From IMG/VR virus record IMGVR_UViG_648276671_000019, positions 1 to 31,646 of that record: a DNA stretch of 31,646 bases. One strand, 5' to 3'. Made by a program: the position numbers and the translations under genes. How positions within the stretch are numbered: the stretch's first letter is position 1; each line of letters opens with the position of its first letter. This stretch comes from a virus (lineage: Duplodnaviria; Heunggongvirae; Uroviricota; Caudoviricetes). Below, piece by piece: positions 15,158-15,387 of the stretch. The notes beneath the pieces are model-generated. The model ran no database searches and was not told the origin of the DNA. It saw nothing but the letters and a program-made list of their open reading frames with translations.

Positions 15158-15232
15158 TGGAGCGGGCAGCGGGAATCGAACCCGCATCATCAGCTTGGAA
15201 GGCTGAGGTAATAGCCATTATACGATGCCCGC
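15158..15232 (-). tRNA. tRNA-Gly (anticodon UCC)
   Basis: Hand-folded cloverleaf: acceptor GCGGGCA/TGCCCGC, anticodon stem TCAGC/GCTGA with loop CTTCCAA, T-arm GCGGG-TTCGATT-CCCGC, 3' TCCA; resembles phage T4 tRNA-Gly. Confidence 0.7.
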
Positions 15233-15233
15233 A

Positions 15234-15310
15234 TGGTCCGTCACCGAGGACTCGAACCCCGCACCATCAACTTAGAAGGTTGATGCTCTATCCCGATGAG
15301 CTAGTGACGG
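15234..15310 (-). tRNA. tRNA-Arg (anticodon UCU)
   Basis: Acceptor CCGTCAC/GTGACGG, anticodon stem TCAAC/GTTGA with loop CTTCTAA, T-loop TTCGAGT, 3' ACCA; 1 nt from the neighbouring tRNAs. Confidence 0.8.
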
Positions 15311-15311
15311 T

Positions 15312-15387
15312 TGGTGGCCCTTGCTGGACTTGAACCAGCGACCTGGCGATTATAACTCGCTCTCATCATTTAGCTAAAATGGCAGGG
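15312..15387 (-). pseudogene. Degenerate tRNA-Ile-like gene (ileX-like 3' half, anticodon loop GTTATAA)
   Basis: 3' half (TCGCC AGGTC GCTGG TTCAAGT CCAGC AAGGGCC A CCA) is nearly identical to E. coli ileX as I recall it; the 5' acceptor strand and D-arm do not pair properly. Confidence 0.35.

Follow-up and report, generated by a model that had tools for sequence, protein, structure and literature searches.

A recombinant tRNA gene cluster with a decayed ileZ copy in the late region of an HK97-like lambdoid phage of Escherichia coli

What kind of element is a short run of tRNA-like genes in a phage late region when one of its members looks broken, and how did its parts come together? The question is raised by a stretch of phage DNA of 31,646 nt (hereafter the window, meaning the whole stretch analysed), which belongs to an HK97-like lambdoid phage of E. 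coli. Its minus strand carries, at 15158-15383, three tRNA-like genes arranged head-to-tail, each with an encoded CCA and with a spacing of 1 nt. They are a tRNA-Gly(UCC) gene (15158..15232, 75 nt with CCA), a tRNA-Arg(UCU) gene (15234..15310, 77 nt with CCA), and an Ile-like gene (15312..15383) that comes third by coordinate and first in the direction of transcription. ARAGORN at default settings made just two calls in the 31.6-kb window, tRNA-Gly(tcc) at 15158-15232 and tRNA-Arg(tct) at 15234-15310. In an Rfam cmscan search with the tRNA family model (RF00005, gathering score 29 bits), the Gly gene scored 64.9 bits (E 4e-12) and the Arg gene 56.0 bits (E 1e-9), the latter with zero non-standard pairs flagged. 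Both genes have the full cloverleaf of a canonical bacterial tRNA, spanning Rfam model positions 1-71 and drawn as cloverleaves by ARAGORN. The Ile-like gene was matched over the full length of the model at 15315-15383 with 31.3 bits (E 0.007), a marginal pass of the gathering score. A permissive Rfam search of 14600-16700 found no further RNA family above its own gathering score. An earlier, sequence-only reading had described a phage tRNA cluster of two intact genes and one degenerate Ile-like copy at 15158 to 15387. ARAGORN and Rfam bear out this description as well as the two anticodons, Gly(UCC) and Arg(UCU); its end coordinate overshot by about 4 nt.

The state of the Ile-like gene can be judged against ileZ of the Stx2 phage 933W (NC_000924.1). 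The ileZ gene encodes the phage tRNA-Ile2, whose CAU anticodon requires lysidine modification. The two sequences are identical at 64 of 76 positions (84%), and at 40 of 41 in the 3′ half; compared with the annotated chromosomal tRNA-Ile genes ileX/ileY, the Ile-like gene is 83% identical over 68 nt. Since the identity to 933W ileZ is accompanied by the GenBank label "tRNA-Pseudo-TAT" on a copy that differs at 1 of 72 nt (ON470586.1), the match is not a product of chance. Four nucleotides are missing from the D-stem/anticodon-stem region, the 5′ half has six substitutions, and C32G and C34U alter the loop, so that the anticodon reads UAU. In the Rfam alignment the 4-nt gap falls on the 5′ side of the anticodon stem, and the outer three pairs of that stem are broken. 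The acceptor stem has non-standard pairs at 2-71 and 4-69, and two non-standard pairs in either register, which is short of the regular 7 bp. In the D arm, which likewise departs from the standard form, C13A breaks the 13-22 pair and both G15 and G18 of the intact copies are replaced by A. The anticodon stem has 4 bp, built with D-stem bases, in place of 5 bp, and the loop, GUUAUAA, carries U33 and a G at position 32, where a pyrimidine is expected. The T arm is intact (GCUGG-UUCAAGU-CCAGC) and is followed by A73 and CCA. ARAGORN did not call the gene at its default or at 95% and called it at a threshold of 90%, as tRNA-Ile(tat) at 15312-15384 with two acceptor mismatches, a 4-bp anticodon stem and a nearly unpaired D arm. 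In its minimum-free-energy fold no acceptor stem forms, and the stability of this fold does not exceed that of shuffled sequences (z = -1.04). The gene is a decayed ileZ, very probably a non-functional remnant. The sequence-only reading had proposed an ileX-like 3′ half, mismatches in the acceptor stem and D arm, and an unusual GTTATAA loop, and each of these was recovered in the Rfam alignment, in the alignment to 933W and in the 90% ARAGORN call. It had also named a canonical fold of this gene, or other anticodons in its two neighbours, as what would speak against it; ARAGORN at default found neither.

The two intact genes have different origins. At 75 of 75 positions the Gly gene agrees with E. 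coli K-12 glyT, and its flanks are unrelated to those of the host thrU-tyrU-glyT-thrT operon; its identity to the phage T4 tRNA-Gly is 63/75 (84%). Because the match to glyT is complete, the flanks are unrelated and the T4 gene is only 84% identical, the gene is a captured host gene and not a T4-like one, although the sequence-only reading had noted a resemblance to the T4 gene. In related prophages, an adjacent Thr(UGU) gene is likewise identical to its host counterpart, thrU. The Arg gene shares 80.5% (62/77) of its positions with 933W argN and 62.8% with argO, which rules out its assignment to argO; judging by its sequence, it is a member of the argN family that carries UCU in place of UCG. 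The sampled clusters contain 190 Arg genes, of which 74 are argN-type with UCG, 11 argN-type with UCU and 105 argO-type with UCU; the UCU anticodon was thus found in 11 of the 85 argN-type genes. The argN family has kept its cloverleaf: 97.1% of the cells in the alignment are paired and six pairs have changed on both sides, against 29-54% in slid controls. The window copy is paired at every position in the Rfam alignment. In one argN backbone resembling that of 933W, the same switch from UCG to UCU came about through one point mutation. The cluster contains no argO-type sequence, and its third place is held by the glyT copy.

The surroundings of the cluster are those of a lambdoid late region. 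It lies between the Q antiterminator gene and the holin/lysozyme/Rz genes, all on the same strand, and relatives share this order of genes. The Q gene (16590..17414, minus strand) matches Pfam PF03589 Antiterm with E 2.4e-51, and its relatives are annotated as antitermination protein Q. Downstream of the tRNA genes, the lysis cassette (13246..14874, minus strand; Pfam PF04971, PF07041, PF00959 and PF03245) consists of a P21-type holin S (14659-14874), a DUF1327/YdfR gene (14304-14654), a lysozyme (13707-14240) and Rz (13246-13725). Between the Q unit and the tRNA genes, an ORF of 314 aa lies on the opposite strand (15510..16454, plus strand); it belongs to PHROG 7003, a family of unknown function, and Pfam and PADLOC searches gave no match for it. 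Over its first 25 kb, the window is 95% identical to Escherichia phage vB_EcoS-611R1 across 79% of the length and 94% identical to the Stx phage phi467 across 70%.

Two routes of transcription are suggested by the signals in this region. A consensus scan found a pR′-like late promoter just downstream of Q (16521..16550, minus strand; TTGACT, 18 nt, TACCAT), which may be identified as pR′ by its position, after the annotation of pR′ in 933W. About 40 nt after it lies a G+C-rich hairpin followed by a U run (16452..16480, given without a strand; GAACCCGC-CTTACA-GCGGGTTTTT), which was seen in the sequence and in its predicted fold. The hairpin would act as a tR′-like terminator for a Q-controlled transcript and would also end the convergent 314-aa ORF. 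A terminator scan listed none, including this visible hairpin. In the 933W record, this layout of promoter and hairpin after Q carries the annotations pR′, qut and terminators. A late transcript that starts at pR′ would need to cross the 314-aa ORF in antisense. A weak sigma-70-like match (15394..15423, minus strand; TTTTCA, 18 nt, TATCAT; 9/12 consensus matches) ends 10 nt ahead of the pseudo-tRNA, in the position equivalent to that of the putative tRNA promoter "pT", which is annotated about 9-10 nt upstream of ileZ in the 933W record. Six promoter-like matches of this kind were found where 4.5 are expected in shuffled sequence, which is no excess. In lambdoid phages, tRNA genes downstream of Q have been reported and tied to rare codons (PMC3636060, PMC7946995). 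A full-text literature search under the gene names ileZ, argN and argO found nothing relevant.

The closest described system is the ileZ-argN-argO array of 933W, which occupies the same position after Q and before the late/lysis genes on the same strand. Both arrays consist of head-to-tail genes with encoded CCA and have a promoter-like element directly upstream; in the window cluster, the homologue of ileZ (64/76) comes first and that of argN (62/77) second. The differences are several. The window copy of ileZ is a pseudogene with a TAT anticodon and not a functional tRNA-Ile2 (CAU), its argN-type gene has the anticodon UCU whereas 933W argN has UCG, and the place of argO is taken by the glyT copy. 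Furthermore, the window has no stx gene, and its Q is of the 271-274-aa type and is parted from the tRNA genes by the opposite-strand 314-aa ORF. The sequence-only reading had seen here the decay of an ileZ-argN-argO type cluster, with alignment to the ileZ/argN/argO genes of Stx phages as a check. The alignment to 933W upholds the decay of ileZ, but the array as a whole is recombinant, with an argN-family UCU gene and a glyT copy in third place. The region is thus of a kind already known: it belongs with the late-operon tRNA cassettes of lambdoid phages in the ileZ-argN-argO family, and its recombinant arrangement is a rare one.

Other clusters share different parts of it. In clusters of the type Ile(CAU)-Arg(UCU)-Thr(UGU)-Gly(UCC), such as that of strain Sx181-0-1 (NZ_CP078137.1), the same Ile 3′ half with a G in the T-loop, the same 1-nt spacer and an argN-family Arg(UCU) gene are found together with the same Gly gene, identical to glyT. 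Their Ile gene, unlike that of the window, is intact (71.2 bits), and a Thr gene identical to thrU stands between Arg and Gly, which is absent in the window. The phage vB_EcoS-611R1 (ON470586.1), in turn, carries the same pseudogene, labelled as noted above, together with the same upstream 314-aa ORF, Q and toprim module. Its pseudogene is followed by a 7-nt spacer, Arg(UCG), an argO-type Arg(UCU) and the sRNA STnc100; in the window, Arg(UCU)-Gly stands in this place and STnc100 is absent. Further copies of the pseudogene stand unannotated in prophages of STEC and commensal E. coli. In the E. coli chromosome, the exact counterpart of the Gly gene is glyT, and ileX and ileY are intact in contrast to the broken Ile copy of the window. 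The T4 cluster (Arg, Ile, Thr, Ser, Pro, Gly, Leu, Gln) overlaps in its Arg, Ile, Thr and Gly specificities, and by these the two clusters are alike as phage codon supplements. The window genes are only 84% (Gly), 64% (Arg) and 59% (Ile) identical to those of T4, and the T4 genes are not the source of the window cluster.

The course of the decay of ileZ can be followed across about 140 loci with this Ile gene, taken from two IMG/VR scans and from annotated E. coli and phage records. In the classified set, about 120 loci are intact (71-72.5 Rfam bits). Seven loci are intact except for the loss of 4 nt from GAGCGAGCGA (58.2 bits); four have, in addition, substitutions at positions 2, 4, 5, 13, 15 and 18 with the anticodon still CAT (36.0 bits); and eight, including the window, further carry C32G and C34T (32.6 or 31.3 bits). 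ARAGORN takes the deletion-only copies for Met(cat) genes whose anticodon lies at position 30, and it never calls copies of the last two states. The deleted 4 nt are one unit of the short tandem repeat GAGC-GAGC, and for this reason the loss probably occurred by replication slippage. The 4-nt-deleted allele occurs on three reshuffled flank haplotypes and on the haplotype of the two most decayed states; with flanks so reshuffled, recurrence and recombination of the deletion are inseparable. The two most decayed states are always linked to one module of 314-aa ORF, Q, 286-aa ORF and toprim primase. Their pseudogene is present in 59 of 5,426 complete E. coli genomes and in eight IMG/VR contigs. 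In 185,579 species-representative genomes, the junction of the 4-nt deletion had no match, and the Ile 3′ half was found at 17 loci (Escherichia, Shigella, Lelliottia, Serratia and a few metagenome bins). A separate source for the odd 5′ half was also considered and rejected, as its 20-mer was found only in the same pseudogene lineage (eight IMG/VR contigs).

The pseudogene itself is a joint between sequences of different history. Its eight substitutions and the deletion are all confined to the 5′ half, which leaves the 3′ 41 nt intact. Under an even spread of substitutions, the chance that all eight would fall in the first 31 aligned positions is about (31/72)^8, or about 0.001. The 3′ half of the window copy has the T-loop G variant and the 1-nt spacer. 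This combination stands behind 13 intact Ile genes and, among pseudogene copies, only the three that are followed by Arg(UCU); in every other pseudogene copy the T-loop has the A variant, and a spacer of 7 nt leads to Arg(UCG). The asymmetry of the two halves is therefore explained by the arrival of the 3′ half through recombination from a cluster with an intact Ile gene. Recombination breakpoints map inside the pseudogene, and homology with other phages starts or stops at tRNA gene boundaries (15233, 15234 and 15257). Only IMG/VR contig L008 was found to share the exact order pseudo-Ile, Arg(UCU), Gly(UCC). A 361-nt query spanning the cluster was covered over 80% or more by no complete E. coli genome or phage record, and it follows that none of these records has the whole array. 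The cluster is thus a recombinant and not a decaying ileZ-argN-argO array. It unites the 5′ part of the pseudo-ileZ, linked to one Q/replication module; an Ile 3′ half, 1-nt spacer and Arg(UCU), a haplotype that elsewhere stands behind intact Ile genes; and a glyT copy like the one that closes intact Ile-Arg(UCU)-Thr-Gly clusters, but with no Thr gene before it.

Divergence from relatives does not single out the pseudogene. It differs from them at 0-3 of 72 sites and the neighbouring intergenic region at 1-3 of 126; the 314-aa ORF is about 2% diverged in most relatives, and Q and the 286-aa ORF about 13%. The block of low divergence thus consists of the 314-aa ORF, the intergenic region and the pseudo-tRNA. 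A special constraint on the pseudogene is unsupported, since it has diverged to the same degree as the sequences beside it. The relative L018 combines an identical pseudogene with a 314-aa ORF that is 7.7% diverged, a contrast that might be taken as a sign of constraint but is accounted for just as well by mosaic boundaries.

Does the codon usage of the phage offer a use for the retained genes? The codons of 19 late ORFs were compared with those of 42 annotated K-12 genes (14,748 codons), a baseline that includes highly expressed genes and somewhat inflates the ratios. The most over-used codon is AGG (4.6-fold), followed by AGA (3.9-fold), CGG (3.3-fold) and GGA (2.5-fold); GGG ranks seventh (2.0-fold) and AUA eighth (1.9-fold). 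Against genome-wide codon values, the enrichment is presumably smaller (about 2- to 4-fold) and in the same direction. The sequence-only reading, which had pointed to the rare AGA codon, had proposed such a codon-usage analysis of the late genes as a check. tRNA-Arg(UCU) decodes AGA/AGG and tRNA-Gly(UCC) decodes GGA/GGG, so that between them the retained genes serve four of the seven late codons with the strongest over-use, which fits codon supplementation. The match of tRNAs and codons is incomplete, as CGG is strongly over-used and yet the cluster has no tRNA that reads it. Furthermore, the glyT copy, being identical to the host gene, contributes dosage only and no new decoding capacity. AUA occurs 5.2 times per 1000 codons in late genes versus 11.3 in early genes, where it is over-used 4-fold relative to the K-12 sample; its low use in late genes fits a tolerated loss of a late-expressed AUA reader.

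Collectively, the locus is very probably a late-operon tRNA cassette of an HK97-like lambdoid phage with two functional tRNAs for over-used codons and an ileZ pseudogene whose 3′ half was acquired by recombination. The Arg and Gly tRNAs would probably be co-transcribed with the late genes, either by Q-dependent read-through from the pR′/tR′ unit beside Q or from the weak promoter directly upstream. Host tRNA-processing enzymes would then cut the tRNAs from the precursor, and the charged products would presumably benefit the phage by raising the supply of decoders for AGA/AGG and GGA/GGG, codons that it uses 2-5 times more than the host sample. The ileZ copy lost one unit of its tandem repeat, and later substitutions broke its acceptor and D stems, removed G18 and altered its anticodon loop. 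Its 3′ half was probably gained recently by homologous recombination inside the gene, and the tRNA genes are in this view the joints for the exchange of late-region modules.

Other explanations deserve to be weighed against this cassette model. The Ile-like gene could be a functional, unconventional tRNA-Ile(UAU) with a reduced D arm that reads AUA without TilS lysidine modification, and its score above the Rfam gathering threshold (31.3 vs 29), the 90% ARAGORN call with a 7-nt loop, U33, intact T arm and CCA, the 58 bits and ARAGORN calls of deletion-only relatives, and the 4-fold over-use of AUA in early genes all point in that direction. It is nevertheless a highly improbable reading in view of the defects described above, namely the two acceptor-stem mismatches, the loss of G15, G18 and the 13-22 pair, a purine at position 32 above a stem of just 4 bp, and a fold that lacks the acceptor stem and is no better than shuffles. 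Its homologues, moreover, are left unannotated by PGAP and in one case labelled as a pseudogene by tRNAscan-SE; sister copies keep CAU, which indicates that the anticodon varies freely; and the divergence of the gene equals that of neighbouring DNA. A dead copy might also be kept for a role in RNA or DNA, as a promoter-proximal leader, as a point of entry for RNase P/RNase E that helps the Arg tRNA to mature, or as a homology patch for module exchange. The confinement of all lesions to the 5′ half beside a perfect 3′ 41 nt would agree with this, as would the position of the pseudo-tRNA 1 nt from the Arg gene and 10 nt from the -10-like element, as at 933W pT, its persistence in the E. coli genomes and contigs counted above, and the breakpoints inside it. 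This role is unlikely, since recent recombination with intact genes explains the conservation of the 3′ half, overall divergence is the same as in adjacent non-coding DNA, intact clusters need no such leader, and service as a recombination joint follows from homology and not from a selected function.

The benefit of the intact tRNAs could likewise be of another kind. After the cleavage of tRNAs, translation can be restored by those of a phage, and tRNA-Arg is a target of colicin D; against this background, the Arg and Gly genes might mainly be spares against anticodon nucleases of the host or of competitors rather than codon supplements, and the presence of Lys(UUU), Arg and Thr in various combinations in the sampled lambdoid clusters is compatible with such a use. 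It appears distinctly improbable, as a Gly tRNA identical to that of the host would not escape a sequence-specific nuclease, the set of tRNAs closely matches the over-used phage codons, and Pfam and PADLOC identified no defence or anti-defence gene beside the cluster. A bolder proposal combines two of the processes discussed above: the GAGC-GAGC repeat in ileZ would be a recurrent off-switch operated by slippage, and the dead copy would be kept as a promoter-proximal leader and recombination joint, a selected linker. The occurrence of the 4-nt-deleted allele on at least four flank haplotypes has been raised in favour of recurrent slippage. The combined proposal is quite doubtful; if it were true, tRNA genes and their pseudogenes would be active organisers of lambdoid mosaicism and not passive cargo.

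For the annotation of such phages, the cassette model has direct consequences. The third element calls for the label of an ileZ pseudogene, as one GenBank record already flags it, the Gly gene for that of a captured host glyT, and the Arg gene for that of a likely argN-family member with a switched anticodon. Beyond annotation the result matters little and holds nothing surprising to a specialist. The retained tRNAs, which match over-used codons, support the standard view of codon supplementation by phage tRNAs, and the decay series of ileZ, together with the breakpoints inside tRNA genes, illustrates the reshuffling of lambdoid late regions, for which short conserved sequences provide the sites.

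Several related loci sampled from IMG/VR (L007, L010–L012, L014, L016 and L017) carry copies of ileZ, the Ile tRNA gene of the phage 933W cluster, whose sole difference from intact genes is a 4-nt deletion. These copies retain a score of 58 bits and are called by ARAGORN as tRNA-Met(cat). They lie on three flank haplotypes, which have been reshuffled, and some of these loci show at most one mismatch in 240 nt when compared with loci that hold intact genes. In an alignment of argN-family genes taken from the related loci together with the window copy (15234–15310), a switch of the anticodon from UCG to UCU is seen twice. 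One switch lies in a diverged argN subclade with compensatory stem changes, to which the Arg gene of the window belongs, and the other consists of one point change in an argN backbone resembling that of 933W.

The Thr(UGU) gene of the E. coli Sx181-0-1 prophage (L002, 3152–3227) matches host thrU at 100% identity and adjoins a copy of glyT; thus, of the genes in the host thrU-tyrU-glyT-thrT operon, the cassettes hold two, and tyrU is missing from them. In phage phi467, the stx genes are followed by Thr(UGU) and Gly(UCC) genes as a pair. The related prophages L001 (3398–3597), L003 (3433–3687), L005 (4647–4858) and L014 (2983–3172) carry sRNA STnc100 in the region downstream of the tRNA cluster, accompanied in L003 by AgvB (anti-GcvB), whereas neither is present in the interval 14875–15157 that separates the Gly and holin genes of the window.

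The helicase ORF of the window (19232–21817, minus strand) contains an in-frame insertion of 308 amino acids (19892–20815). The 552-aa orthologue in the related locus L004 lacks this insert and reads ...APGKES|CLIFDHSG at the insertion point, whereas the window reads ...APGKES|CIARDTLILT...TANGLIVHN|CLIFDHSG, with precise boundaries and the frame kept. The insert starts with Cys, contains a TPDH motif, and ends with His-Asn followed by Cys; these features, close to helicase motif VI, form an intein-like signature. Pfam and PDB sequence searches with the insert gave no match, and an ORF nested within it in another frame (19897–20658) has no convincing domain.

Next to the antiterminator gene Q, on the minus strand, a promoter match (TTGACT-18-TACCAT) is followed by a hairpin, GAACCCGC-CTTACA-GCGGGTTTTT, and together they (16452–16550) likely represent a pR'/tR' unit. 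The hairpin could also serve as a terminator for a convergent 314-aa ORF; it is absent from the output of a terminator scan, and Rfam returned for the region a sub-threshold Trp-leader-like match and nothing else. This ORF (15510–16454) lies on the plus strand, opposite to Q and the tRNAs, between the tRNA cluster and Q with its pR'/tR'-like unit. It belongs to PHROG 7003, a family of unknown function, and has no match in Pfam or PADLOC. The block comprising the ORF, the intergenic region and the pseudo-tRNA diverges by approximately 2% in most relatives, compared to approximately 13% for the flanking Q, which points to a moron that spread recently.
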